Shown here one piece after another: positions 8,948 through 54,193 of a stretch of 64,000 nt of DNA. Where the stretch lies: contig VMFR01000002.1 of assembly GCA_007376135.1 (NCBI GenBank), positions 92,870 through 156,869 on the forward strand, in the 5' to 3' direction. The notes beneath the pieces were generated by a model. That model searched no databases. It saw only the letters and a program-made list of their open reading frames with translations, and had not been told where the DNA came from. Position 1 is the first letter of the stretch. Each line of letters begins with the position of its first letter. The DNA comes from Parcubacteria group bacterium Gr01-1014_31 (lineage in GTDB: Bacteria > Patescibacteriota > Patescibacteriia > Buchananbacterales > GWA2-38-13). The position numbers were made by a program, and so were the translations under genes.

Positions 8948-9973
8948 TCAACAACTAAGCTGGTGGCAGACGCGCTGGTTACTGCCGCCCGGAATATGAA
9001 TCTGGGGTTTTGGCGACTGCAGCAACAAAGCAGGCGTTTGATGGTCGGGCAGAGCTAAGGCCAGGCCAGGACCCGTAGGGCAATGGACTGGCGAGCCCAC
9101 ACGGGCCGATGCGGGCGGCGTCAATAAAAATACGAAGAGCATCATCGCGACTGCGGTTGCGATGATGTGCACGAACGGCACGGGGGCAGAAGAAAAGCGT
9201 TGACCGGCAAGCGTGGCCACGCGGACGGAGATCAACCCACGTTGGGCGAATGCAACTGCCACCCCGCGGGGAACAGCGGCGGCGGAAAGCTGATAAAGCG
9301 CTCGTGCCAGCGCAGCTCGGCCACCGGGTTGATGCAGCGCAGCGTTATCCGCAGCTATTTCCTGCGCAACGGTATACCGCTGCCGCAACACGCCCACCAA
9401 GGGCAGAAAGAATAACGCCTGCTGCAGGGCCGTCAGAAGCGCCATGCGCATCGGATCCCGGCGCCGACGATGGTGATCTTCGTGGGCAAGCACTGCACTA
9501 AGTTCCGGCTCTTGTAACCGCGCTACCGTAGTGGTCGAAAGATATATTCTTGGATGGAAAAAACCGGTACAAAAGCACAGCGGCCGAGGTGAATCCACCA
9601 CCACCAGCGAGTCGGCGTTCAACCGCAACCGCCTTCGCAGCTGATGTATCGGCGTCGGCTCGATGTCAGTGATCAGGTCGGTCAGCGAGCGCCGCAAACG
9701 GTTCGTCGCCAGAACCTGCCAGAGCAGCGACCCAATACATACTACCGCGAGCATGGTTGGGATACTCAACGCCAGCAATAATTGGATCGGCATACCGACA
9801 AACAGCGAACCGAGTACCTCGGTGCAACGGGCACGCACCGCCATGACCACCTGCTGAACCTCGAACGATCGCAGGGCGCGCAGGAGTACTTGCCCCAGCA
9901 CGACAAAGACGCCAGTCCCTATGGCGAGCGCGGCTAAAAATGTTCCATCGTACCACTGGCGGAATCGCGTCAT
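8948..9973 (-). CDS. BlaR1/MecR1-like M56 family membrane metalloprotease (signal transducer), lacking a penicillin-binding sensor domain
   Basis: 341 aa. Four TM helices and HEDHH zinc motif in a cytoplasmic loop, as in M56 peptidases. Too short for a C-terminal PBP-type sensor. C-terminus is Cys/His-containing (HCPTGP...VCHQLSC). Directly downstream of the BlaI-family repressor gene. Confidence 0.65.
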   Translation of the reverse strand: MTRFRQWYDGTFLAALAIGTGVFVVLGQVLLRALRSFEVQQVVMAVRARCTEVLGSLFVGMPIQLLLALSIPTMLAVVCIGSLLWQVLATNRLRRSLTDLITDIEPTPIHQLRRRLRLNADSLVVVDSPRPLCFCTGFFHPRIYLSTTTVARLQEPELSAVLAHEDHHRRRRDPMRMALLTALQQALFFLPLVGVLRQRYTVAQEIAADNAALHQPGGRAALARALYQLSAAAVPRGVAVAFAQRGLISVRVATLAGQRFSSAPVPFVHIIATAVAMMLFVFLLTPPASARVGSPVHCPTGPGLALALPDHQTPALLLQSPKPQIHIPGGSNQRVCHQLSC

Positions 9974-9982
9974 ACCACAAGA

Positions 9983-10378
9983 TTATTCCCCTTTCGCGTG
10001 CTTTGCAGAACGGAGCTGATGCAGCAACCGCTTAAGCGCTTTGCGGTCGGTGCGCTGCAGCTCTTCGGCAAAACACGCGACGGCCACCGGACCGAACTGG
10101 CGTCTCATCTGCCCAAAAAACGTTTCTGCCGCCGACCGAAAAAACTGCTCTGGCGTAAAAACGGCTTGATAGTGGTGCACCTGCCCAGCCGCGCGTACGA
10201 GCAATCCTTTGACGGCCAGCCGATTGATAACGGTCAGGACCGTCGTATAGGCCAGATCACGGTTGCGCTGCAGGAGCCGCACGACCTCGCCGACCGGCAA
10301 TGGTTTTTGGTACGACCAAAAAATAGCCATCACTCGATGTTCGAGTTCACCCAGGAGTTGGCGCGGAATTCGTCTCAC
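9983..10378 (-). CDS. BlaI/MecI/CopY-family winged-helix transcriptional repressor
   Basis: 131 aa. N-terminal MAIFW...PLPVGEVVRLL...YTTVLTVINRLAVKGLL matches the Penicillinase_R winged helix. No C-terminal CxCx4CxC copper site. Confidence 0.8.
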   Translation of the reverse strand: MRRIPRQLLGELEHRVMAIFWSYQKPLPVGEVVRLLQRNRDLAYTTVLTVINRLAVKGLLVRAAGQVHHYQAVFTPEQFFRSAAETFFGQMRRQFGPVAVACFAEELQRTDRKALKRLLHQLRSAKHAKGE

Positions 10379-10381
10379 AAA

Positions 10382-10429
10382 GAATTACTACAGATTGTAG
10401 TTAGTGTTTACTACAATCTGTAGTAATTC
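10382..10429. promoter_or_regulatory. BlaI/CopY-type operator: 20-bp perfect inverted repeat containing TACAnnnTGTA boxes
   Basis: GAATTACTACAGATTGTAGT .. 8 nt .. ACTACAATCTGTAGTAATTC. Each arm itself contains ACTACAgatTGTAGT. Sits immediately upstream of the repressor gene start, consistent with autoregulation. Confidence 0.6.
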
Positions 10430-10607
10430 TTACAAGGAGTCAAGCAAAGTTATCCACACGAAATCTTGATGCCAAGGCCGCGCACCAGTTCTCGCCGTAA
10501 TTCACCCAACCACAACACAATCGGATGCCAATGGCACAGAATGTTTCTCTACCCGCCCGATTTCCTGATGCAAATTTGCAGGTGATCCCATCCTCCCGCG
10601 CGCCGTT

Positions 10608-14197: not shown

Positions 14198-14869
14198 ATG
14201 CGTTCATCCCGTTCCCTCATCCTGGCTGCCGCGCTCATGGCTGCGGCGTTCTTCGCCGCGCCGGACGCCGCCAATGCCCAGATGCACTGCTGCTGCGACG
14301 TGGAGTTCGAACGCTGCGCCCCTTCCCCCATCATGCAGGGACAGCCGGGCGTTGCCGGATACCCGTGTCCGCCAGTCGGCGACGAAACGCTGACCCTCTG
14401 GCGCGCCTCCAACGACCCGGCGTACCAGACGTGCTCAGCCTGGGTCAACCCGAACGCCGCTGAATTCCGTACCGCCGCCGAGCAGGAGGCGCGCGAACGC
14501 AGCTGGCTGAAGCTGGTCATCGGCACCGAACTCATCCCCGATGCCTGTCGCACCGGCGATGCGAAGGGCTGCACGCTGTCCCACCTGCTGCAGGTCCTTG
14601 CCAACGTCGCGCGGGCGATGCTGGCGTTGCTGGGCAGCGCGGCGTTCGCGATGTTCGTCTACGGCGGGGTGGTCTTTCTGACCTCCCAGGGCAACCAGGA
14701 GCGGGTCACTACGGGCCGGCGCATCCTCACCAATGCCGTATTGGGCATTCTGGTGGTGCTGGTATCCTGGACGGCGGTCAACTTCGTAGTGGTCGCCCTC
14801 AGCCAAGGCCGGGGCGGATTTGGCCAAATGGCCAACATCTTTGGCAATCAATGGAACCGCGGTCCATAA
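14198..14869 (+). CDS. VirB2/TrbC-like pilin family protein (T4SS-pilin-like) with Cys-rich N-terminal extension; paralog 1 of 9
   Basis: 223 aa. Signal peptide ending ANAQ, a roughly 110-aa domain with 10 Cys (QMHCCCDVEFERC...), then the shared C-terminal hairpin ...FVYGGVVFLTSQGNQERVTTGRRILTNAVLGILVVLVSW. This aligns with the GG(F/Y)xWMTAxGNEE..KAK..I..A.IGL block of the following genes. Confidence 0.6.
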   Translation: MRSSRSLILAAALMAAAFFAAPDAANAQMHCCCDVEFERCAPSPIMQGQPGVAGYPCPPVGDETLTLWRASNDPAYQTCSAWVNPNAAEFRTAAEQEARERSWLKLVIGTELIPDACRTGDAKGCTLSHLLQVLANVARAMLALLGSAAFAMFVYGGVVFLTSQGNQERVTTGRRILTNAVLGILVVLVSWTAVNFVVVALSQGRGGFGQMANIFGNQWNRGP

Positions 14870-14895
14870 GGTGTGGATAACCGGTTTAAAATTTG

Positions 14896-14924
14896 TTGAC
14901 AGGTAGTGAAAAACCTTGTATAAT
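14896..14924 (+). promoter_or_regulatory. consensus sigma70-type promoter (TTGACA-17-TATAAT) for pilin paralog 2
   Basis: TTGACA at 14896-14901, exactly 17-nt spacer, TATAAT at 14919-14924. About 105 nt upstream of ATG 15030, which carries a strong SD (GGAAGGGGGTGA). Confidence 0.6.
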
Positions 14925-15029
14925 TACTGTGTTTTCCTTTGCATTTTGCTTGAAACATAGCAGAATAATGCGGCTGGAACCGGGCGGGTGACCGCTTGGC
15001 GCCGGCAGCACTCGGAAGGGGGTGAAACA

Positions 15030-15395
15030 ATGAAAAAAATTACTACAGGGATTGCTACGGCCGCGGGGCTGATCGCAGCACTGCCGGTCTTCGCCCAGCT
15101 CCCGGCGACGGTTAACCAGGGGTTAGCCTACTCGACGATCGTCGGCTGGGGTACCCAGGACCTTCGTACGACCATCATGCTCGTGATCAACATCATCATG
15201 GGCTTCCTGGGAATTATCGCCGTTATCATCATTCTCACCGGTGGATTCAAGTGGATGACCGCCGGCGGCAACGAGGAGAAGGTAGCGGAGTCCAAGAAGC
15301 TGATCATCGCTGGTATCGTTGGTTTGGCAATTATCTTTGGCGCCTACGCGATCGCGTCGTTCGTCATCAGTTCGCTGGTGAACGCCACGACCTAG
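15030..15395 (+). CDS. VirB2/TrbC-like pilin (T4SS-pilin family), probable major subunit; paralog 2
   Basis: 121 aa. Signal peptide ...ALPVFAQ, short mature N-terminus, TM1 IMGFLGIIAVIIILTGGFKWMTAGGNEEKVAESKKLIIAGIVGLAIIFGAYAIASFVI (TM2). Start moved to the internal MKK with a good SD. Own promoter and terminator. Confidence 0.7.
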   Translation: MKKITTGIATAAGLIAALPVFAQLPATVNQGLAYSTIVGWGTQDLRTTIMLVINIIMGFLGIIAVIIILTGGFKWMTAGGNEEKVAESKKLIIAGIVGLAIIFGAYAIASFVISSLVNATT

Positions 15396-15420
15396 TTCGC
15401 AAGACTCCACAGAGGCAAAG

Positions 15421-15445
15421 GGCCCCGCTCGGCGGGGTCTTTTGT
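15421..15445 (+). terminator. rho-independent terminator after pilin paralog 2
   Basis: GGCCCCGCTCGGCGGGGTC hairpin followed by TTTTGTT. Confidence 0.5.
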
Positions 15446-15481
15446 TACGCCCGGCCGGTGGCGTTCGGGCCGCTGCTGCGA

Positions 15482-15487
15482 TATAAT
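15482..15487 (+). promoter_or_regulatory. candidate -10 element (TATAAT) for the pilin 3-8 operon
   Basis: GCTGCGATATAATGG lies 20 nt upstream of ATG 15508. No good -35 was found, so support is weak. Confidence 0.3.
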
Positions 15488-15507
15488 GGGTTCATCACTT
15501 TTTCCCC

Positions 15508-15903
15508 ATGCGCCGCCGATCTGCCGCCATTGTTCTGACCCTCCTGCTGGGTGTTGCGCTGGCGACGCCGATTTCTGCGGCGTTGGCCCAGGGTGACGAC
15601 TACGGCCTGAACGAAACCTATACCGCCGCCACCGGGGAGCAACCGCCCGCGAACCCCGACCCCCTGCCTCAAACCCTTGGGCTCATCATCAACTGGACGC
15701 TCGGGCTGCTGGGCTTTGTTTTCCTGATGCTCATGATCTGGGCCGGCATCGGCTGGATGACGGCCGGCGGCAACGAGGAGAAGGTGACGAAAGCGAAAAC
15801 GATGATCAACGCTGCCATCGCCGGTATGGTCGTGGTCTTCATTTCCTACGCGCTGGCCGACGCTATCGTTGCCGCGCTGTCGGCGGCGTCCAATACCGGC
15901 TAG
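15508..15903 (+). CDS. VirB2/TrbC-like pilin family protein; paralog 3
   Basis: 131 aa. Signal peptide ...AALAQ. Conserved LMLMIWAGIGWMTAGGNEEKVTKAKTMINAAIAGMVVVFISYALA. The 30-nt core is nearly identical to paralog 2. Confidence 0.7.
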   Translation: MRRRSAAIVLTLLLGVALATPISAALAQGDDYGLNETYTAATGEQPPANPDPLPQTLGLIINWTLGLLGFVFLMLMIWAGIGWMTAGGNEEKVTKAKTMINAAIAGMVVVFISYALADAIVAALSAASNTG

Positions 15904-15911
15904 CTCTCCCT

Positions 15912-16319
15912 ATGCGCCCTCCCCGGCAACTCATTGCCCACACCGCCGCCGGCTTGCTGGTGTTCCCCGGCGCCGCCTTGGCCCAGAACGAATATCGCGG
16001 CATCGGCAAGGTCATCAACAAAGCGATGCGCGACACGGCGCTGTTCGCGGGGTTCATCCCCGAGAGCGGCCAGCCGCGCAACTTCATGCAGATCATGGGC
16101 GCCTACACCAACGGCATCATCACTTTTCTCGGCCTCATTTTCCTGGTGCTCATCATCTGGGCCGGCTTCAAGTGGATGACGGCCGCCGGCAATGAAGACC
16201 AGGTCACCAAGGCGCGCGGCTACATCAAGAATGCCGCCATCGGGCTGACCATCATCCTGGTGGCGCGGATGATCACCTACCTGCTGCTGGAGATCATCCA
16301 GCCCGCCGTCACGCCATAG
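15912..16319 (+). CDS. VirB2/TrbC-like pilin family protein; paralog 4
   Basis: 135 aa. ...AALAQ signal. LVLIIWAGFKWMTAAGNEDQVTKARGYIKNAAIGLTIILVARMITY. 8-nt gap from paralog 3, no SD. Confidence 0.7.
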   Translation: MRPPRQLIAHTAAGLLVFPGAALAQNEYRGIGKVINKAMRDTALFAGFIPESGQPRNFMQIMGAYTNGIITFLGLIFLVLIIWAGFKWMTAAGNEDQVTKARGYIKNAAIGLTIILVARMITYLLLEIIQPAVTP

Positions 16320-16322
16320 CCT

Positions 16323-16727
16323 ATGCACGCAAAAATCCCCTCGCTTCCCCGCTGGCTGGCTGCCGCCGTGGCGCTGGCGCCAAGCGCGGCGCTGGCACAA
16401 ACGACCCGCAGCGCGGGCGGGCTGTTCGCTAACATCCGCTCCAACATTGAAACATCGGGTATCATGCCGGGCACGGCCACCGACGCACAGCAGGTCATCG
16501 GTGGCATCATCACCGGCGTCATCGGGCTGCTGGGCGTCATTTTCTTCATCCTCATTCTCTACGGCGGGTACCTGTGGATGACGGCGCGCGGCAATGAGCA
16601 GCAGATAGAAAAAGCCAAGGACATCATCAAATCCTCCAGCATCGGGCTGGCGGTCGTGCTGGGCGCCTACCTCATCACGTTCATCGTGGTGCAGCTGCTC
16701 ATCAGCCAGACGCTAACGTCGCTGTAG
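16323..16727 (+). CDS. VirB2/TrbC-like pilin family protein; paralog 5
   Basis: 134 aa. ...AALAQ signal. ILILYGGYLWMTARGNEQQIEKAKDIIKSSSIGLAVVLGAYLITF. 3-nt gap from paralog 4. Confidence 0.7.
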   Translation: MHAKIPSLPRWLAAAVALAPSAALAQTTRSAGGLFANIRSNIETSGIMPGTATDAQQVIGGIITGVIGLLGVIFFILILYGGYLWMTARGNEQQIEKAKDIIKSSSIGLAVVLGAYLITFIVVQLLISQTLTSL

Positions 16728-16731
16728 ACCT

Positions 16732-17148
16732 ATGCGCCGTAATTTCTCTACCTGGGCGTGGACGGCGGCGGGAATCGCAGCGGGCTTGCCCATGCCGGTG
16801 CTGGCGCAGACGCGCAACACTATTATGGGCCGCCTCATCAACACGGCGTCCATGTTTGGCCCGTTCCAAACCATCGACAATGAGCCGGGCGCAGGACTGC
16901 GGCAGGCGGCGCGTATCATCGGCCTTATCATCGGCAGCTTGCTCGCATTCTTGGGCATCGTGTTCATGCTCCTCATGATAACGTCGGGCATCCGTTGGAT
17001 GACGGCGCGCGGCAATGAGACGGAAATTGAAAAAGCCAAAGAAACCATCAAGAGCGCCGCCATCGGGCTGCTGGTGGTCGTGCTCTCCTACGCCTTTGTG
17101 ACCCTCATCAGCCGGATGGTGGTAGACACCGGCCTGCTACGCGGATAG
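16732..17148 (+). CDS. VirB2/TrbC-like pilin family protein; paralog 6
   Basis: 138 aa. ...PVLAQ signal. LLMITSGIRWMTARGNETEIEKAKETIKSAAIGLLVVVLSYAFVTL. Confidence 0.7.
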   Translation: MRRNFSTWAWTAAGIAAGLPMPVLAQTRNTIMGRLINTASMFGPFQTIDNEPGAGLRQAARIIGLIIGSLLAFLGIVFMLLMITSGIRWMTARGNETEIEKAKETIKSAAIGLLVVVLSYAFVTLISRMVVDTGLLRG

Positions 17149-17159
17149 TTTTTCTCCCT

Positions 17160-17543
17160 ATGTCGCATCGCTTTGCTTCGTGGACGAAAGGGCTGGCGGC
17201 CGCTCTGGCGCTCTTGCCCTACCGCGTGCTGGCGCAGGCCCCGCCGCTGTTCGGGCCGGGCAGCCTGGTGAACGAAACCTGCGAAGGCGCCGGGTTCAAC
17301 TGCAGCGAGCGCGACGAGACGTTCTTTGCCGAGGCGCTGGGCTCCGTCGTGTTCGCGCTGCTGTCGTTCACCGGCCTGGTATTCACCGCGCTCATCCTGT
17401 ACGGCGGGTATCACTGGATGCTGGCGCGCGGCAACGAGTCCGAGATCGACAAAGCCAAGTCCATCATCCGTTCGGCCATCATCGGGCTGGTCGTCACCCT
17501 GGCGTCCTACTCGGTGTGGATCGCCATCTCCTACTTTATCTAA
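17160..17543 (+). CDS. VirB2/TrbC-like pilin family protein; paralog 7
   Basis: 127 aa. ...RVLAQ signal. Mature N-terminus has CEGAGFNC. ALILYGGYHWMLARGNESEIDKAKSIIRSAIIGLVVTLASY. Confidence 0.7.
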   Translation: MSHRFASWTKGLAAALALLPYRVLAQAPPLFGPGSLVNETCEGAGFNCSERDETFFAEALGSVVFALLSFTGLVFTALILYGGYHWMLARGNESEIDKAKSIIRSAIIGLVVTLASYSVWIAISYFI

Positions 17544-17548
17544 CCACG

Positions 17549-17986
17549 ATGCGCCGCTTGACCTCCCGCGTGCTTCAAATCTTGGCCCCGCTGGTCGTAT
17601 TGTTCGCCACGGCGGCGCAGGCGCAAACCGGGCGCTTGCTGGGTGGCGGCCTGAGCGACCGGATGCGCGGCATCGCGGGGGTGTTTGCCCGCAACGTCGG
17701 GCTGCAGGAAACGCCGCTGTCGTTCGTCGTCGCGCGGGTCATCTTCATGTTCCTGGCCATCCTCGGCATCATTTTCGTCGGCCTCATCACCTACGCGGGC
17801 TACCACTGGCTGACCGCGCGCGGCAACGAGGAAAAGGTGCGCAAAGCCCAGGATACCCTGCGGCAGGCGACCTGGGGGCTCATCATTGTGCTGGCCGCCT
17901 ACTCCATTTCGTACTTCATCCTGGCGTACCTGCTGGGCGAATTCGGCACCGCCCCGCCGCCCCCGCTGACTGGCGGCGCAACATAA
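17549..17986 (+). CDS. VirB2/TrbC-like pilin family protein; paralog 8
   Basis: 145 aa from MRRLTSRVLQ... with ...AAQAQ signal. GLITYAGYHWLTARGNEEKVRKAQDTLRQATWGLIIVLAAYSISY. Pro-rich C-tail. The long track ORF 17180..17986 is an out-of-frame overlap of paralog 7; the real start is ATG 17549. Confidence 0.65.
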   Translation: MRRLTSRVLQILAPLVVLFATAAQAQTGRLLGGGLSDRMRGIAGVFARNVGLQETPLSFVVARVIFMFLAILGIIFVGLITYAGYHWLTARGNEEKVRKAQDTLRQATWGLIIVLAAYSISYFILAYLLGEFGTAPPPPLTGGAT

Positions 17987-18007
17987 TACAACCCGGCAAA
18001 AAGAAGA

Positions 18008-18040
18008 ACGGCGCAAAAGCATTGCCTTTGCGCCGTTTTC
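18008..18040. terminator. bidirectional terminator between the pilin operon and the convergent lipoprotein gene
   Basis: GGCGCAAAAGCATTGCCTTTGCGCC hairpin with T-run on the plus strand and A-run (T-run on the minus strand). Confidence 0.5.
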
Positions 18041-18066
18041 GAATCGAAGAACGATCCGCTTGCCCA

Positions 18067-18648
18067 CTACTTGGGCTTTACGCACGCCGCCCACTTCACG
18101 GTGCGCACCACGGTGGTTTCGTTGACCGTCTCGAAAACCACGTTCCCGCTGGCAGTCTCGATGAACCGGAAAAGATATTTATACCCCTCCGGTAACGAAC
18201 AGGCGACCGTGGTCGGCTCCACCTTGGGATTCGGCGCAGGAGCGAGGTTGACCACTTCCACGGTTGGACCGTTCAAGTTGATCCGACCTCGGTGATCGAC
18301 CTGGAAAACCTGGCAGACCAGGGCAAGACCGGTGAAATTACTGATGCCCCCATCCACCAAAATCATGGTGGGCTCCTCAGGCTTGGTGGCCTTGATCTGC
18401 TCGAGCTTGCGCTCGGCCAAATCGACGTCGCCCTCCTTGGCGTTGATGACCGCAGTTCGCGCGGCCGTCAGTTGGGAATTGTACTCCATCAACTCCGCCG
18501 CACGCATCGCCGTGATCGGGTCCGTTTCGCCAAACCACGCGTGAACCACGATCTTGGGATCGCGCTTGTCCTCCAACAACACATCGGAGGAACGGCAGCC
18601 GAACGCAGCGGCGAGCGGGAGGACAACCAACATCATCCGGTACGACAT
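18067..18648 (-). CDS. hypothetical lipoprotein
   Basis: 193 aa from MSYRMMLVVLPLAAAFGC (lipobox-like AFGC). No family recognised. The longer ORF to 18783 lacks a signal-peptide context. ATG complement at 18646-18648. Confidence 0.45.
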   Translation of the reverse strand: MSYRMMLVVLPLAAAFGCRSSDVLLEDKRDPKIVVHAWFGETDPITAMRAAELMEYNSQLTAARTAVINAKEGDVDLAERKLEQIKATKPEEPTMILVDGGISNFTGLALVCQVFQVDHRGRINLNGPTVEVVNLAPAPNPKVEPTTVACSLPEGYKYLFRFIETASGNVVFETVNETTVVRTVKWAACVKPK

Positions 18649-18915
18649 GTAAAGACTCCTGCCAGAAACTGGCGTTGTGGGACGCATTGTCCAAGGTTCA
18701 ACCGTATTAAGCCCCGGTGAAGGCTCCACAGCAGTGGAGAAAAGCCAAACATTGGCTTTTGACTTAAGATGTAATGATACCACAAATTGAAACTATTGTC
18801 AATATAATTAGCAATATTTGGCTTATTTTAGATGATTATAATCAATACTATATTACGCCCGCCAATGCTAATTCCCCTTGTTTCAGCCAACCCGGGAATC
18901 CTGTATAATGAACGT

Positions 18916-19025
18916 GGTATGCCCGGTAGTACAATGGATATACTGGGCAGAAGAGCGGTGCGGCAGTAATTAATTACGCTGGAACGCGAACACCAGTAAA
19001 CAACCATTGTCCTGCCGGGTATGCC
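18916..19025 (+). promoter_or_regulatory. conserved inverted-repeat 5' leader element (copy C); 3' arm contains the start codon of pilin paralog 9
   Basis: 5' arm GGTATGCCCGGTAGTACAATGG (18916-18937) and 3' arm CCATTGTCCTGCCGGGTATGCC (19004-19025) form a 22-bp stem (with G-U pairs) around an AT-rich core. An extended -10 TGTATAAT (18902-18909) is 6 nt upstream. The same architecture occurs at 55591-55691 and 60110-60224. Confidence 0.5.
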
Positions 19026-19431
19026 CATCGCAGAGCGCGTCGCCGTCAAACTCGCCCAGCTCTCCCCCGATATTCGGGAGTCGCAAGGGCCGCTGTGGCG
19101 CGCGATAAAGAACCAGTACACCCCGTTCAACCTGTTCTTCGGCCCGCCCTCCGACCCGCGCGTCGTGGCGGCGCTGGTCATCAAGGGGTTCATGTCGCTG
19201 CTGGGCATCTTGTTTTTGCTCTACGTGGTGTACGCGGGGTTCATGTGGATGACGGCCAACGGCGACGAGGAAAGGATCCGCAAGGCGAAATCCACCATCA
19301 CCACCGGCGCATTCGGGGTGCTGGTCATCCTGGCGGCGTACTCCATCGCCCAGTTCATCACCACGGCGTTCGGCTGCGCGACCGCCACCTACGGCGAGTG
19401 GTGCCTTTTCTTCAACAACCTGACGTGGTAG
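19021..19431 (+). CDS. divergent VirB2/TrbC-like pilin family protein without N-terminal signal peptide; paralog 9
   Basis: 136 aa. The conserved hairpin LLYVVYAGFMWMTANGDEERIRKAKSTITTGAFGVLVILAAYSIA is present, but the N-terminus MPIAERVAVKLAQLSPDIRES is not a signal peptide. C-terminal CATATYGEWC. Confidence 0.55.
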   Translation: MPIAERVAVKLAQLSPDIRESQGPLWRAIKNQYTPFNLFFGPPSDPRVVAALVIKGFMSLLGILFLLYVVYAGFMWMTANGDEERIRKAKSTITTGAFGVLVILAAYSIAQFITTAFGCATATYGEWCLFFNNLTW

Positions 19432-19446
19432 CGCTGCCCCGCATTG

Positions 19447-19477
19447 CGCCCCCGGAACGCTCCGGGGGTATTTTTTT
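19447..19477 (+). terminator. rho-independent terminator after pilin paralog 9
   Basis: CCCCCGGAACGCTCCGGGGG hairpin followed by TATTTTTTTG. Confidence 0.6.
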
Positions 19478-49314: not shown

Positions 49315-50460
49315 CTACTGTTTGATCGGCATCACCAAATAGAGGTAATCGGTCCGTCCGCGGGGTTTGAGCACGCACGGGCTGGCGTTGTCGATCAGGT
49401 GCAGCTCCACCTCCTCGGTTTCGATATTCTGCAGGCCGTCGAGCAGGAACCGGTAGTTCAGGACCGTGCGGTTCTCTTGGCCGGTCACCTCGGCGGCAAT
49501 GCGGGAAGTGTTCTCCCCCAGTTGGGCGTTGGCGGCCGACAAGCTGAGCGAGCGCTGGGTAGGCATAACGGCCAGCGCCACGTCATAAATGCCACTCCGT
49601 GAAAAGAGGCTGGTGGTTTTTGTGGCCTTTGTCAGATCCACGGTCGCGGCGCGCGCCGTAGTGGCGTACTGCTTGGGAATGATCTGCTCATAGTCAGGGT
49701 ACTGGCCCTCGATCACCCGCGAGACGATCTCCACCGTCCCAAGCGTGAAGAGCACCTGGTTTTCCGCCACGAACAGCTCAACCCGATCGACGGTCGCCAA
49801 TGCGGCGGGATCTTTGAAACTCGTGAGAATGCGGAGGAGCTCCTGAAGCGCACGAGCGGGAACGATGACCTTCTGCGGCTTGGTCGGCGCGGTCAGCAGC
49901 CGCACCTTTCTCTCCGCCAGGCGATAGCTGTCGGTCGCCGTCAACGTCAATTGGTTGCCGCTGGTGGTCAGGAGCACGCCATTGATCTCCGGCCGAGTCT
50001 CGCTCATGGAAACGGCGAATATCACCTGGGCAATGGCGGCACGGAGGTCGATAACCGAGCAAGACAGGGTGTTGGTGCGCTCCACGGTGGGAATGAGGGG
50101 AAAATCGGCCGCTGCGATTCCCTTCATCTTCATCTCTGAGCTCCCACCCTTCACAACCATTGACCCCCCGTTCTCGCCACTCGCATTCTCCAGCGCGATT
50201 TCCACGCTATCTTTCGGCAAGAGACTGACGTAATCGGCGAAAAGCTTGGATTGCACCGTGAACGACCCCGGGCGCTCGATCTTCCCTCGCACCTGGCAAC
50301 TGACGCCGATCTCTAAATTGGTCGCGGATAGCTTAATGCCGTTCTCTCCCGCTTCGATCAGCACGTTATTCAACACCGGTAGGTTCGTATTCTTGGCCGC
50401 GACGTGGGCGACGGTCATTAAACCCTGGCTTAAATTTTCTTGAGTAACAACGAATTTCAT
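49315..50460 (-). CDS. dnaN: DNA polymerase III subunit beta (sliding clamp)
   Basis: 381 aa. MKFVVTQENLSQGL...LPVLNNVLIEA N-terminus and three-domain length. Directly downstream of dnaA. Confidence 0.9.
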   Translation of the reverse strand: MKFVVTQENLSQGLMTVAHVAAKNTNLPVLNNVLIEAGENGIKLSATNLEIGVSCQVRGKIERPGSFTVQSKLFADYVSLLPKDSVEIALENASGENGGSMVVKGGSSEMKMKGIAAADFPLIPTVERTNTLSCSVIDLRAAIAQVIFAVSMSETRPEINGVLLTTSGNQLTLTATDSYRLAERKVRLLTAPTKPQKVIVPARALQELLRILTSFKDPAALATVDRVELFVAENQVLFTLGTVEIVSRVIEGQYPDYEQIIPKQYATTARAATVDLTKATKTTSLFSRSGIYDVALAVMPTQRSLSLSAANAQLGENTSRIAAEVTGQENRTVLNYRFLLDGLQNIETEEVELHLIDNASPCVLKPRGRTDYLYLVMPIKQ

Positions 50461-50805
50461 ACGAGGGATAACAGGGGTTTGATAACGGTGATAATTATAT
50501 TGATACTAGGTAGTAATAGTAGTAGGCGGCAGGGATAAGTGGACAAGTGGGAGATTCGACTGTGTGAGTTCGTTTACGGCGAGTTACGATGGGATAAGTC
50601 CGGGATACACGGCGTGGGTTGGCCGTGGATGGATTGGGTATGAATGTCGCGGCGGCGGCTGACGCCGCGTCGGCAGTGCATAGGTCAGTGGACAGTTCCC
50701 AGGTTATCCAACTGAGAGGCGGGGCTTTTACCCCACCTCTTCCCCACGCTGTCCCCGCATCTTCCCCAGTTTCCGGGCCCATGCCGTTGGCACGGCAACG
50801 GCTCG
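50461..50805. other. dnaA-dnaN intergenic region with AT-rich stretch and repeated GGATAA/GATAAC DnaA-box cores (candidate oriC segment)
   Basis: gGGATAACa, tTGATAACg, gGGATAAGt and gGGATAAGt within 140 bp, plus AT-rich GATAATTATATTGATACTAGGTAGTAATAGTAG. No full 9-mer consensus box. Confidence 0.35.
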
Positions 50806-52197
50806 TTAACTGGTGATGTTGGTCATGTTGAAGAGCCGCTGGCGGATGACACCGACGTCTTGCTGGAGTTTCTCGTCCACCTGCAGTTCCCGGCTGATCT
50901 TGAGATACGCGTGCATGGCGGTGGTGTGGTCGCGATTGCCGATTTCGGAGCCGATCGCGGGGTAGGAGCACTTGGTCTCCTCCCGCATCAGATACATGAT
51001 GATCTGCCGCGGCAGCGCCAGGTTCTTTTTCCGGCAGCTGCCCATGATATCCTCGGTTTTTAGGTCAAAATATTCGATCACGGCGGAAATGATCTGCCGC
51101 GGCGTGAGGGATTTTCGGGGGCCGTCGCCGCTGAGCGTTCCCAGCATCTTTTTCACCCCTTCCAAGGTGATGGGGCTGCGGTCCAGCTGGTGGAACGCGA
51201 CGATCCGGTTCAGCGCTCCTTCCAACTCGCGGACGTTGTTGGCGACCGACGTCGCTACATAGTGCAGAATTTCCCGCTCCATGGCGAAGGCGCGTTCCCG
51301 GCACTTGGTCTCAAGGATCGCCAGCCGTGTTTCCAGGTCCGGGGTGCCGACGTCGGCGATCATCCCCCATTCAAAGCGCGATACCAGCCGGTGTTCGAGC
51401 GCCGGGATGGCCTTTGGCGGTCGGTCCGAGCTGATGACGATCTGTTTATTATTCTGGTGCAGCGCGTTGAAGGTATGGAAGAACTCTTCTTGCGTGCCTT
51501 CTTTCCCGGCGAGGAACTGGATATCGTCGACCAGGAGGACGTCGACCGAGCGGTAAACGTTCTTGAAGCGCGACGTGACGTTGGAGGAAATAGAGCGGAT
51601 GAAATCGTTGATGAATTTTTCAGAGCTGACGTACAATACTTTGGCGCCCCCCTGCCGGCGCGCCAGATGGTTGCCGACGGCCTGCAGCAGGTGCGTTTTG
51701 CCCAAACCGACGCCGCCGTAGATGAACAATGGGTTATACACGCGACCGGGTTTGTTGCAGACGGCCAAACAGGCGGCATGTGCCAGCTCATTGGCCTTGC
51801 CGATGACGAAATTTTCAAAGGTGTAGCGCTGGTTGAGCCCGAGTTCGTTCGGGGTTGCCTCGCCCCCGTCGTCGGCCGCAGTCGGTGTTGCAACCGTTAC
51901 CGCCGCCGTGATCTCAACGACCGGTGCGGCGGCGCGGGGTCCGGTTTCAACCTTGTAAATAACCTCGCGCACGCGGTTTTCCGAGACTTTTTGCAGGGCG
52001 CGCAAAATGAACGCGTGATATTTCTTTTCAAACCACGCTTTGGTGAACGTATTGGGAACGCCGACAATGACCCGCTCGCCTTCGGCGGAGGCGATGAAGG
52101 TGTTTTTGAACCAGGTCATGAAATTGGCCCGGCTCAAGGTCAACTCCAATTCCCCCAGCGTGGCCTGCCAGAGTTGCTGATGATCGATCATACTCAA
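50806..52197 (-). CDS. dnaA: chromosomal replication initiator protein DnaA
   Basis: 463 aa. AAA+ Walker A GGVGLGKTHLL, sensor motifs and C-terminal DNA-binding domain (...AIGSEIGNRDHTTAMHA). Confidence 0.9.
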   Translation of the reverse strand: MSMIDHQQLWQATLGELELTLSRANFMTWFKNTFIASAEGERVIVGVPNTFTKAWFEKKYHAFILRALQKVSENRVREVIYKVETGPRAAAPVVEITAAVTVATPTAADDGGEATPNELGLNQRYTFENFVIGKANELAHAACLAVCNKPGRVYNPLFIYGGVGLGKTHLLQAVGNHLARRQGGAKVLYVSSEKFINDFIRSISSNVTSRFKNVYRSVDVLLVDDIQFLAGKEGTQEEFFHTFNALHQNNKQIVISSDRPPKAIPALEHRLVSRFEWGMIADVGTPDLETRLAILETKCRERAFAMEREILHYVATSVANNVRELEGALNRIVAFHQLDRSPITLEGVKKMLGTLSGDGPRKSLTPRQIISAVIEYFDLKTEDIMGSCRKKNLALPRQIIMYLMREETKCSYPAIGSEIGNRDHTTAMHAYLKISRELQVDEKLQQDVGVIRQRLFNMTNITS

Positions 52198-52583
52198 ATG
52201 TGGGACGCGGCGGCTGCCACCAAGGAATGGCGGCAGGCCGGTGAGATGATGGCTGGGGTATCAGCGACGAGTGCCGGCTGACGACAGCCCGTCGCGATAA
52301 AATTTTTTTTTCAGCTCCTGTTTTTTCAACTTGGACACCCGGAACAGTGATTTCTTTTTTGAGCTCCCCCATAGTATACCACGAGGGTTGGCGTGTCAAA
52401 GCTGACATGCCAACTGTGCATTTGTGTACAAGCTGTGGAGTGCATGTGCATATTGTAAATCCGCCCGACATTTGAAGCCGCGATGATTGACGGTTTGCCA
52501 TTCCCCTGCTAGGATAGGTGTACCTTGAGCGCTCGGCGGACCTCCGCCCCGCGCGCAAACGAATTCAATCCTCCTTTTTGCTT
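52198..52583. other. dnaA-rpmH divergent intergenic region: candidate oriC/DUE
   Basis: Classical oriC location. A/T-rich run (AAAATTTTTTTTTCAGCTCCTGTTTTTTCAACTT...TTTCTTTTTTGAG) and degenerate DnaA boxes (TGTGTACAA, TGTGCATAT, 7/9 each). Confidence 0.4.
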
Positions 52584-52721
52584 ATGCCGAAACGGACGTA
52601 CCAACCGAAACGCCGCCGCCGCCAGCGCGTGCACGGATTCCGCCGCCGCATGCGGAGCAGCAATGGCCGCAACGTGCTCAAGCGCCGACGGACCCGGGGG
52701 CGCCATCGCTTGACGGTATAG
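52584..52721 (+). CDS. rpmH: 50S ribosomal protein L34
   Basis: 45 aa. [25 protein letters not shown] is near-universal L34 sequence. Start at the internal ATG of the 67-aa ORF. Confidence 0.85.
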
Positions 52722-52757
52722 TTCTGACGGGGCATTCGCCCCGCTGGTGCCGTCGCT

Positions 52758-53102
52758 ATGTTGTCCCAACACTACCGCCTGACGAAGCGTGGAGAGTTGA
52801 TGGCCGTGCTCCGGCACGGCGCTATGGTGCGGGGCGGCGGTTTGACGGTACGCGTCCTGCCGACCGGCCGCCAGGGCAGCCGTTTTGCTTTCGTTGTTTC
52901 CAATAAAGTCTCCAAGCACGCCGTGCAGCGCAACCGTTTGCGTCGGCAGTTGCGAGAGCTGGTGCGTGCCATGCTGCCGGAGGTGGCGGGCGGTTACGAT
53001 GTGGTGGTCACGGTGCAGCCGGGACGTCCGGTGCGTACTACCGTTGCGCTCAAGGATTCACTGGCCATTGCCCTGCGCCGCGTTCGTCTCCTTTCCCTAT
53101 GA
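52758..53102 (+). CDS. rnpA: ribonuclease P protein component
   Basis: 114 aa, basic. RNR motif region SKHAVQRNRLRRQLRE. Follows rpmH. Confidence 0.8.
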   Translation: MLSQHYRLTKRGELMAVLRHGAMVRGGGLTVRVLPTGRQGSRFAFVVSNKVSKHAVQRNRLRRQLRELVRAMLPEVAGGYDVVVTVQPGRPVRTTVALKDSLAIALRRVRLLSL

Positions 53103-53353
53103 ACCGATTTTCCCGGCGTTTGGCCTCAGCCATGGCTGCGGGTATCCGGCTCTACCAGCGGACGTTTTCCATGGACCACGGATTACTGAGCCGCATCATT
53201 CCCGGCGGACGCTGTCGGTACTGGCCGAGCTGTTCGGAGTACGGACGCCAGGCGTTCCGGCGTTACGGCCTGCGTCGCGGGCTGTTGCTCACATTGTGGC
53301 GCATCGGGCGATGTAATCCCTTCAGCGCCGGCGGCGTTGATCCACTTCCCTAG
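53099..53353 (+). CDS. yidD: membrane protein insertion efficiency factor YidD
   Basis: 84 aa. YQRTFSMDHGLLSRIIPGGRCRYWPSCSEYGRQAF...GRCNPFSAGGVDP matches YidD/haemolytic domain. Overlaps the rnpA stop by 4 nt. Confidence 0.8.
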   Translation: MNRFSRRLASAMAAGIRLYQRTFSMDHGLLSRIIPGGRCRYWPSCSEYGRQAFRRYGLRRGLLLTLWRIGRCNPFSAGGVDPLP

Positions 53354-53446
53354 TTTGTAGGAGTTAGCTTGTGGCTGGTAGGCAATCGTTGCCGGCCCGC
53401 CCTACAAGCTACCAGCTAAAAGCTACAAGCCTTACCTCCACGCATC

Positions 53447-54193
53447 ATGGGCCAACTCTTCCACACCGTGCTCTACCAGCCGATCTTCAATTTGCTGGTT
53501 ATTTTGTATAACCTCGTCCCCGGCCACGACCTGGGCGTTAGCATCCTCCTGTTGACCGTCCTGCTGAAAGTGCTGCTCTACCCGATCGCGGCGCGGTCCA
53601 TCCGCATCCAGCACCAGATGCAGCGGCTGCAGCCCCAGATCTCTGCCCTGCAGCAGAAATTCAAAGGGCAGAAGGAGCAGCTGTCGCGCGAGCTGATGGA
53701 GTTGTATAAGAAAGAAAAGGTGAACCCGTTCTCGTCGTGCCTACCATTGCTCATCCAGCTCCCGTTCCTCATCGCCGTGTACCGCGTGTTCATCGACGGT
53801 CTGAAACCCGGCCCCGTGGAAGGATTGTATTCGTTCGTTACTAACCCTGGCCCGTTGAATCCCGTGGCGTTCGGCTTTTTGGATCTGGCCGACGCCCGGA
53901 ACTGGGTGCTGGCGATCCTCGCCGGCGGCGCGCAATACTGGCAAGCCAAGATGCTGCAGACGAAAAAACCGCCGGTGCACGGGGCGGGCACCAAGGATGA
54001 AGATATGGCCGCCGCCATGAGCAAGCAGATGGTGTATATGATGCCGGTGATGACCGTGTTCATTAGCGCCAGCCTGCCGGCTGGCCTTGCGCTGTACTGG
54101 CTCGCGACGACCTTGTTGAGCGTCGCCCAGCAGCACCTGATGTTGCGTCCCAAGTCTGCCTTGCCGCCCGCGACCCCGGCTTCTCAGGTTTAG
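53447..54193 (+). CDS. yidC: membrane protein insertase YidC (short, Gram-positive-like form)
   Basis: 248 aa. PIFNLLVILY...LLLTVLLKVLLYPI...QPQISALQQKFKG...CLPLLIQLPFLIAVYRV are YidC/Oxa1 core motifs. Confidence 0.85.
   Translation: MGQLFHTVLYQPIFNLLVILYNLVPGHDLGVSILLLTVLLKVLLYPIAARSIRIQHQMQRLQPQISALQQKFKGQKEQLSRELMELYKKEKVNPFSSCLPLLIQLPFLIAVYRVFIDGLKPGPVEGLYSFVTNPGPLNPVAFGFLDLADARNWVLAILAGGAQYWQAKMLQTKKPPVHGAGTKDEDMAAAMSKQMVYMMPVMTVFISASLPAGLALYWLATTLLSVAQQHLMLRPKSALPPATPASQV

Follow-up and report, generated by a model that had tools for sequence, protein, structure and literature searches.

The question raised by this locus is whether one gene in an array of small pilin-like genes, p2 (15030-15395), has been set apart from its paralogs as a strongly expressed major subunit, and whether its output could be coupled to DnaA. 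The array lies in a stretch of 64,000 nucleotides from Parcubacteria group bacterium Gr01-1014_31 (hereafter the window; positions 92,870 to 156,869 of contig VMFR01000002.1) and consists of nine small open reading frames (ORFs) within 14198-19431, p1 to p9, one more than the eight paralogs counted in a preliminary description of this DNA. Every one of them scores above the Pfam gathering threshold of PF18895 (T4SS_pilin, VirB2/TrbC-like), with 27.1-39.3 bits for a cut-off of 26.6. We consider it probable that p2 is the conserved core VirB2-like pilin of the nine-gene array, organized as a monocistronic, maximum-output cassette that supplies the bulk subunit and is modulated through a DnaA-box 9-mer lying upstream of it. 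The reading of p2 as a stand-alone, strongly expressed unit is well supported by conservation; the assignment of p2 as the major subunit and its coupling to DnaA are plausible and have gained ground, though unproven. The elements of the p2 unit are, in 5' to 3' order:

14872-14880, minus strand: perfect DnaA-box consensus (9/9), TTATCCACA on the minus strand and TGTGGATAA when read toward p2
14881-14895, plus strand: A/T-rich spacer (CCGGTTTAAAATTTG) between the DnaA box and the -35, with an AAA(A) run kept in six orthologs
14896-14924, plus strand: sigma-70 promoter, TTGACA-17-TATAAT, 12/12 consensus
14943-14966, plus strand: small hairpin of the 5' untranslated region (AUUUUGCU - loop - AGCAGAAU), at predicted transcript positions of about +13 to +36
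15016-15025, plus strand: extended Shine-Dalgarno (SD) sequence AAGGGGGTGA, 10 nt, ending 4 nt before the ATG at 15030, within GGAAGGGGGTGA (15014-15025)
15030-15395, plus strand: p2, a 121-aa PF18895 (VirB2/TrbC-like) pilin, the slow-evolving core paralog
15415-15447, plus strand: intrinsic terminator, a 14-bp hairpin CAAAGGGCCCCGC-UCG-GCGGGGUCUUUUG (hairpin 15415-15445) with the tail UUUUGUU

A promoter, a leader and a terminator around p2

Orthologs were collected from GTDB genomes, metagenomes and exact-protein look-ups; a metagenome scan with the p2 protein alone returned few close relatives, and the exact-protein look-ups yielded more. Six array-type loci were compared, namely the window and, with their p2 protein identities, L008 (98%), L108 (95%), L109 (90%), L088 (90%) and L009 (88%). 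The upstream regions of these six orthologs are unalignable save for short blocks: TGTGGATAA, an A-run, TTGACA, GTATAAT, the hairpin arms and AAGGGGGTGAA.

The textbook promoter announced in the preliminary description is real. With both strands of the 64 kb considered, no other site matches at 12/12; the runner-up reaches 11/12 (18802-18774, minus strand) and five others reach 10/12. The promoter of dnaA itself scores 10/12, which indicates that the sigma-70 consensus is valid for this organism. TTGACA and GTATAAT are invariant across the six orthologs despite their diverged flanks. From spacing only, transcription would start near 14931, and the A/T-rich spacer is possibly an UP-like element.

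The leader that follows is 105 nt long and folds as a whole at -42.4 kcal/mol (z = -4.2). Its small hairpin has conserved arms in the six orthologs (AUUUUGCU...AGCAAAAU, TTTTGCT/AGCAAAA), and RNAalifold finds 8 pairs over the six sequences, one of them changed on both sides and two showing G-U changes. Three other candidate elements were set aside. An Rfam gathering scan of the whole window, which would have recognized a riboswitch or other known RNA in the leader, returned tRNA-Ser only; a 7-codon upstream ORF spotted by eye (ATG at 14967) is not kept in L009, L108 or L109; and a hairpin formed by the DnaA box and the 3' end of p1 (GGUCCAUA...UGUGGAU, -11.3 kcal/mol, z = -1.7), considered as a p1 terminator, is not conserved in the orthologs.

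Downstream of p2, a folding energy of -25.1 kcal/mol (z = -3.0) was obtained for the 55 nt at 15396-15450; a simple terminator scanner missed the hairpin. All orthologs carry a GC-rich hairpin directly 3' of the stop codon, with a different sequence each time, and the retention of hairpins with differing sequences fits a terminator under selection. The terminator first placed at about 15421-15445 is thus present and slightly longer than described. Of the earlier statement that p2 alone is built as a stand-alone unit, the combination of promoter, SD and terminator holds and is conserved in the orthologs; the terminator is not exclusive to p2, since p9 has one as well.

The word that ranks second in enrichment outside the SD, TGTGATATA(AT), is simply the extended -10 (TGnTATAAT) that p2-type genes carry in AT-rich clades. 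It had been considered as a variant of the DnaA box; read as an extended -10, it speaks once more for strong promoters and does not bear on DnaA. The conserved extended -10 TGTGATATAAT lies 45-125 nt 5' of the p2-type genes of L037, L039, L041, L053, L059, L073, L075 and L078.

An extended Shine-Dalgarno sequence in an SD-poor genome

The strong SD attributed to p2 proved to be a 10-mer, AAGGGGGTGA, complementary to the canonical 3' end of 16S rRNA (UCACCUCCUU) with one G-U pair; its GGGGG core ends 7 nt before the ATG, and AAGGGGGTGAA, just before the ATG, is invariant in the six orthologs. It is the sole SD of at least 8 nt in the window. At most 4 of 55 window genes, as called from GC frame, have an SD-like pentamer at a plausible distance, none of them near the 10-mer of p2, and dnaA, dnaN, polA and galU have no SD. 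Over about 85 related loci the pentamer precedes some 8% of genes against some 5% of internal control positions (rough averages made by eye). In the window and in loci L008-L112, starts often follow pyrimidine-rich runs (CCCTATG, TTCTTATG), and SD-independent initiation would seem to be the default in these Parcubacteria-group lineages. The lack of an SD being the genome norm, its absence from the downstream genes p3-p8 does not by itself mark weak expression, and here the contrast drawn in the preliminary description fails: SD-less starts are the rule and the SD of p2 is the exception.

This exception extends to relatives of p2. The string GG[AG]GGTG followed by a start codon precedes 46 of 80 p2-type genes, over a GC range of 32% to 66%, and no other plausible ORF (at least 60 codons) in 850 kb of loci. 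SD-derived 8-mers are the most enriched words 5' of p2-type genes (up to 150-fold), and the full motif (G)AAAGG(G/A)GGTGA could pair over 10-12 nt with a canonical 16S 3' end. Close relatives differ in having GGAGG or GGGGG, which fits a normal CCUCC anti-SD with a G-U pair, the presumed pairing partner of the p2 SD as well. The 16S gene of the organism lies outside the window, and an anti-SD motif is reported to be detectable in only 48% of Parcubacteria 16S sequences (PMC9297842).

Slow evolution of p2 within its locus

Of all genes at the locus, p2 changes most slowly. Between the window and L009 it is 87.5% identical, against 68% for the sugar-binding protein encoded by an adjacent, housekeeping-type gene upstream of the array, 50% for the DUF2079 protein, 51% for p1, 53-59% for p3-p6 and 70-73% for p7-p9. 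The comparison with L108 gives 95% for p2, 71% for the sugar-binding protein, 53% for p1, 64% for p3 and 55% for p4. At closer range, L008 (GalU 98.6% identical) retains 98% identity in p2 and 62% in p1, and strain L002 (GalU 99%) has an identical p2 (100%) next to a p1 of 92%, a p3 of 90% and a p4 of 82%; between strains with 99% GalU identity, p3-p8 as a group are 82-91% identical. A slow rate such as that of p2 usually goes with high expression and with service as a structural scaffold, and the fast evolution of p1 and p3-p9 fits variable surface-contact functions of the kind suggested for pilin arrays in PMC12102498.

Homologs of p2 number 1711, with orthologs at 57-98% identity, and are annotated as Patescibacteria or Parcubacteria-group. 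Seven contigs in public metagenomes, including one of 288 kb, encode the identical protein; samples ERZ27284378, ERZ28563803, ERZ4903055/072 and SRR8863434 hold this genome.

A second p2-type family was encountered (L010, L011, L012, L110, L112) whose genes are solitary, 78-80% identical to p2 and often located beside Wzy_C or Polysacc_synt genes. Their upstream block reads ATTATACCATGTTGA(C/T)AAnnnGTTGTAAAT...TATACT and is combined with the same extended SD and an own terminator. Samples ERZ4903072 and ERZ28563803 contain both a gene of this second family and the p2 of the window.

A DnaA-box motif upstream of p2-type genes

The perfect DnaA box noted upstream of p2 matches the consensus at all nine positions, although the distance to the -35 is 15 nt and not 16. 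Two perfect boxes occur in the window for an expectation of 0.27. What had been offered as a hint of DnaA control was strengthened by the comparison: the 9-mer is invariant and lies 15-16 nt from the -35 (about -59 to -51) in the window, L008, L108, L109, L088 and L009, and TGTGGATA is enriched 19-34 fold 5' of p2-type genes across Patescibacteria. In counts, 14 copies fall in 19.7 kb 5' of p2-type genes and 29 in the other 780 kb, a 19-fold difference with the remainder at random expectation; in a strand-specific, unbiased 8-mer test over 76 non-redundant loci, TGTGGATA was the top word unrelated to the SD, being present in 11 loci where 0.33 were expected.

The window encodes a DnaA (50806-52197, minus strand) whose domain IV aligns with those of E. 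coli (1J1V) and B. subtilis (8BTG); the residues PRQ, P, RDHTT and H, which we take from the 1J1V structure to be those that contact bases, are conserved. The dnaA-dnaN spacer, 345 nt in length, has four copies of the GGATAA core, a density 28 times that of the window, and contains three of the five GGGATAA of the window. This spacer (50461-50805) is also the densest cluster of GGATAA/GTGGACA DnaA-box-like cores in the window. In the literature library searched, no paper links the DnaA box with Patescibacteria.

The second perfect box of the window (10450-10458, same orientation) lies 6 nt 5' of a -35, TTGACT, so that both perfect boxes are promoter-proximal. The promoter in question serves a BlaI/CopY-family repressor gene (9983-10378, minus strand; PF03965), and two TACA...TGTA operator dyads (ATTACTACAGATTGTAGT / ACTACAATCTGTAGTAAT) follow its -35 within 10380-10458 (minus strand). 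An M56 (BlaR1-like) peptidase is encoded at 8948-9973 (minus strand), adjoined by copper-type genes (multicopper oxidase, P-type ATPase, DsbA). A 134-aa plus-strand ORF of the public record (10019-10423) is a shadow of the minus-strand blaI/copY-like gene.

In three related loci, paired perfect TGTGGATAA boxes were seen in AT-rich intergenic DNA (L081, 10800-10900; L082, 10280-10380; L061, 10300-10400). The pairs are embedded in repeats (TAAGTCTACA...TGTAGACTTAA, GTCCACA...TGTGGAC) that follow tRNA genes and precede an unannotated region, which possibly specifies a structured RNA. The paired boxes of L081 and L082 are about 8 kb from dnaA-dnaN, and in these two loci a p2-type pilin gene is found only about 3.5 kb from dnaN.

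The p2 protein

p2 carries an N-terminal Sec-type signal peptide (MKKITTGIATAAGLIAALPVFAQ) followed by two hydrophobic helices, with a loop, GGFKWMTAGGNEEK, that is conserved in the alignment. In the AlphaFold2 model, two helices (41-77 and 82-120) form a hairpin, and the block-mean confidence (pLDDT) values are 70-93 over residues 41-110. The protein scores 35.5 bits against PF18895 (cut-off 26.6) and, alone among the paralogs, touches TrbC (PF04956), with a sub-threshold E-value of 0.0027. It had been called the shortest and most canonical member of the array; it is the shortest, and p4 and p5 have higher PF18895 scores. The best NCBIfam match of p2, p3 and p4 is NF045849 (Mbov_0395 family pilin-like conjugal transfer protein), below cut-off in each case and highest for p2 (36.1 bits, cut-off 40; E = 3.8e-9; residues 43-115 on model positions 7-79 of 80). 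In codon usage, p2 has the lowest G+C content at third positions (0.76) and the highest third-position T among the paralogs.

Alternative explanations

Several findings weigh against the reading of p2 as a DnaA-modulated major pilin cassette. Those that concern the regulator come from the placement of the motif. No perfect box is present at the dnaA promoter or in the oriC spacers of the window, and the dnaA-dnaN and dnaA-rpmH spacers hold no box with one mismatch or fewer. In other lineages (L023, L025, L029-L032, L048, L049, L058) TGTGGATA follows a (G)GTAAAAT/TACAAT -10 and occupies about +12 to +20; over some 12 independent promoters the distance past the -10 is fixed at 17-19 nt (14 in one locus), so that the motif would be transcribed, and it also precedes other pilin-like genes (L033, L036, L038). 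There, TATCC(A) precedes the motif and can pair with (T)GGATA, with palindromes TGTGGATAtaTATCCACA in L025 and L030, an arrangement no less compatible with an operator or a 5' RNA hairpin than with DnaA. The second p2-type family, furthermore, has a different conserved upstream block, TTATACCATGTTGA(C/T)AA. A single, simple model of activation by DnaA therefore does not fit all lineages, and the opposite placements between clades would imply different regulatory signs.

The alternative that survives best, and to which we accord a real though minority chance, is that TGTGGATA(A/T) is not a DnaA site: it would serve as operator for some other transcription factor, possibly one specific to Patescibacteria, or would form an arm of a 5' RNA stem-loop (TATCC...GGATA) that stabilizes or regulates the mRNA, its identity to the DnaA consensus being coincidental. 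Yet in the clade of the window the motif stands 5' of the -35, hence outside the transcript of the consensus promoter, and no conserved -10 is present upstream of it. No variation is seen in the right arm TGTGGATA, and the changes in the left arm are uncompensated, which favors sequence-specific recognition over the mere pairing of an RNA stem. Recognition by DnaA in particular is favored by the 9-mer being the canonical consensus, by the conserved base-contact residues of the protein, by the clustering of the GGATAA core beside dnaA and by the paired boxes in AT-rich intergenic regions of relatives (L061, L081, L082).

Other findings concern the nature of the protein. None of the some 20 larger window ORFs scanned with Pfam encodes type IV secretion system (T4SS) machinery (VirB4, VirB6, VirB3 and others), the gene calls of L001 include no T4SS component, and the pilus is therefore putative. 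A Foldseek search of the PDB with the p2 model returned nothing at E of 0.001 or below, the matches being generic helical hairpins with ATP synthase subunit c on top (E = 0.63), and a PDB sequence profile search with p2 was empty; helical hairpins carry little fold information. Related genomes hold about four p2-type copies at separate loci, some of them solitary beside polysaccharide genes, which suggests that the "major subunit" may be several isoforms or a small family.

p2 could on this evidence be an abundant, conserved two-helix membrane or secreted envelope protein and its paralogs variable surface proteins, the analogy with major and minor pilins being a formal one, as the envelope-glycan genes around the array and the predicted status of the PF18895 function would also allow. 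We hold this to be unlikely. All nine proteins exceed the PF18895 gathering threshold and p2 weakly matches both TrbC/VirB2 and the pilin-like family NF045849 of Mycoplasma integrative and conjugative elements (ICEs); VirB2-like genes lie near virB4 in 1135 of 1948 assemblies (PMC12102498), and a pilin series inside the T4SS cluster of Southlakia is essential (PMC10633639).

As to the exclusiveness of the unit, p9 is monocistronic too, with its own terminator. That the signals are real and paralog levels nevertheless comparable, the SD and terminator of p2 serving mRNA stability or autonomous regulation rather than output, with SD-independent initiation an efficient default and p3-p8 fed by read-through and a promoter of their own, has in its favor that SD-less initiation must work well in a genome whose genes, dnaA, dnaN, polA and galU among them, almost all do without an SD, that the U-tract of the terminator is interrupted (UUUUGUU) and partly in the stem, so may leak, and that a conserved -10 precedes p3, but is quite improbable given that p2 has the sole consensus promoter in 64 kb and the sole extended SD in 850 kb of related DNA, that it evolves much more slowly, the usual signature of high expression, and that the secreted genes with top expression in related bacteria include T4SS pilins (PMC10936435).

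Neighboring genes and genomic setting

The remaining features of the array are:

14198-14869, plus strand: p1, a 223-aa, Cys-rich pilin paralog directly 5' of p2 (PF18895, E = 3.8e-8), no SD
15482-15487, plus strand: lone -10 box TATAAT with a poor -35, 20 nt 5' of the p3 start
15508-17986, plus strand: p3-p8, six fast-evolving PF18895 paralogs with gaps of 3-11 nt and no SD
18067-18648 (with its promoter to 18802), minus strand: lipoprotein-like gene between p8 and p9, 193 aa, LAAAFGC lipobox
19021-19431, plus strand: p9, the ninth PF18895 paralog, monocistronic, terminator at 19448-19469, 72% identical to its L009 counterpart

The absence of SDs, the tiny gaps and the lone -10 box ascribed earlier to the downstream paralogs are all found in p3-p8, which start in pyrimidine-rich, CC(C)TATG-like contexts. 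The -10 before p3 is kept as TACAAT in L009 and was not called by the promoter scan; it is probably a weak promoter of the p3-p8 operon. p1 is the most variable gene of the locus (the 62% identity to L008 contrasts with 98.6% for GalU) and has a 130-aa N-terminal extension that opens with a Cys-rich stretch (QMHCCCDVEFERC...).

The lipoprotein-like gene owns the 11/12 promoter mentioned above, a TG-extended TTGACA-17-TATCAT (18802-18774, minus strand), with a leader of about 120 nt. It has no Pfam or NCBIfam match and evolves so fast that tblastn at E of 1e-5 or below misses the counterpart between strains whose p8 is 92% identical; opposite-strand lipoproteins (lipobox ...FGC / ...VGC) are nonetheless encoded at the matching position in L008 (9041-9655, minus strand) and L009 (5775-6341, minus strand). 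Gene order in L009 is the same as in the window, namely GalU, sugar-binding protein, p1, p2, p3 to p8, lipoprotein, p9 and DUF2079, and the envelope-glycan neighbors of the array comprise GalU, the sugar-binding protein, DUF2079, PMT-like glycosyltransferases and a glycosyltransferase of the GT4 type.

The GC content of the window is about 62%. dnaN-dnaA (minus strand) and rpmH-rnpA-yidD-yidC (plus strand) at 49315-54193 coincide with the minimum of cumulative GC skew, which places the replication origin region some 36 kb from the array; this region, with the 345-nt dnaA-dnaN spacer and an A/T-rich stretch at 52295-52330, is the probable oriC.

Proposed mechanism and significance

In the mechanism that we propose, the consensus sigma-70 promoter would drive p2 through a leader of about 100 nt with a small conserved hairpin, the 10-nt extended SD would give it high translation in an SD-poor genome, and the terminator would insulate it from the downstream p3-p8 operon. 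p2 would then be the bulk structural subunit of a VirB2-like filament, and p1 and p3-p9 low-abundance or variable (host-contact) subunits expressed from weak promoters and by way of read-through, coupling or SD-independent initiation. The 9-mer would be read by a protein that binds DNA sequence-specifically, most likely DnaA, and that modulates the p2 promoter, so that pilin output might be tied to replication or growth status.

A more far-reaching generalization, that DnaA directly controls the core-pilin promoter through a single box across Patescibacteria, placed 5' of the -35 in the clade of the window and at about +12 in others, and that the anti-SD is kept largely for the p2-type family, strikes us as doubtful. 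If true, it would couple the production of a filament used for host contact or uptake to replication and growth, an extra layer on the clustering of T4SS genes near oriC, and it would mean that SD-poor bacteria keep an anti-SD largely for a single family of genes with extremely high translation.

The Patescibacteria form a huge radiation, for the most part uncultured and apparently host-attached, whose pilin arrays are functionally opaque although essential in its one genetically tractable member. Against this background, p2 is a concrete candidate for the structural subunit of the filament and its fast-evolving paralogs are candidate determinants of host specificity. The module of promoter, SD and DnaA box offers an entry to gene regulation and translation initiation in these organisms and could serve as a portable strong expression cassette for genetic tools, and the DnaA-box motif makes the link between replication initiation and pilins directly testable.

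Comparison with known systems

Major and minor pilus subunits are classically organized as fimA or papA followed by a hairpin, or as the monocistronic pilA of type IV pili. The p2 locus resembles these systems in that the strongest signals belong to the putative major gene, with a hairpin behind it to reduce transcription into the genes of low-abundance subunits, and in some of them the major subunit is likewise the more conserved core scaffold. It differs in that the families and machines are unrelated, that the downstream genes are here paralogs of the major one, and that p2 is the most conserved protein whereas the major pilin is variable in many pathogens.

DnaA acts as a transcription factor through single boxes at dnaA and nrdAB in E. 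coli, sda in B. subtilis, and gcrA, ftsZ and podJ in Caulobacter. p2-type promoters share with these a single high-affinity consensus box near a sigma-70 promoter, located either 5' of the -35, as in activation, or just past the start, as in repression. To our knowledge, no pilin or T4SS gene has been documented as a DnaA target. Nor do we know of a description, in Bartonella or Anaplasma, of a separately insulated, conserved core copy of VirB2 with its own consensus promoter and SD. In the T4SS of these two genera, VirB2 copies are amplified in tandem and diverge rapidly, with a supposed role in varying the interaction at the surface (cited in PMC12102498). Unlike the present array, those copies lie inside complete virB operons of diderm intracellular pathogens.

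The closest parallel is offered by the VirB2-like (PF18895 / PF04956) arrays described in Patescibacteria, which comprise 2-11 genes in 383 assemblies and whose T4SS genes cluster near dnaA (PMC12102498). Like them, the present array is a tandem series of small divergent genes, sometimes with a non-pilin interruption, in a Patescibacterial host and in the chromosomal region of dnaA (here about 36 kb away). Unlike them, it was found with no virB4 or other T4SS gene among the scanned window ORFs, and the published work, which accounts for high expression by gene dosage near oriC, describes no conserved core paralog, promoters, SDs, terminators or DnaA-box motif. A pilin series is essential in Ca. 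Southlakia epibionticum (PMC10633639), and in Paceibacteria the five secreted genes with the highest expression include T4SS pilins (PMC10936435). For Patescibacteria, both the arrays and the high expression of T4SS pilins have thus been reported already; the p2 expression module and its association with a DnaA box are new.

Finally, the Mbov_0395 / MMCAP2_0565 proteins of Mycoplasma ICEs (NF045849) are the best NCBIfam match of p2 and belong to a monoderm, MPF-FATA-type system, as do the T4SS of Patescibacteria. p2, at 36.1 bits for a cut-off of 40, is not a member of that family, and its locus has no ICE context. MPF-FATA systems have been stated to lack VirB2 homologs (PMC12102498), and set against that statement, the match of p2 to a family from an MPF-FATA-type element suggests that the origin of the Patescibacterial pilins may deserve another look.

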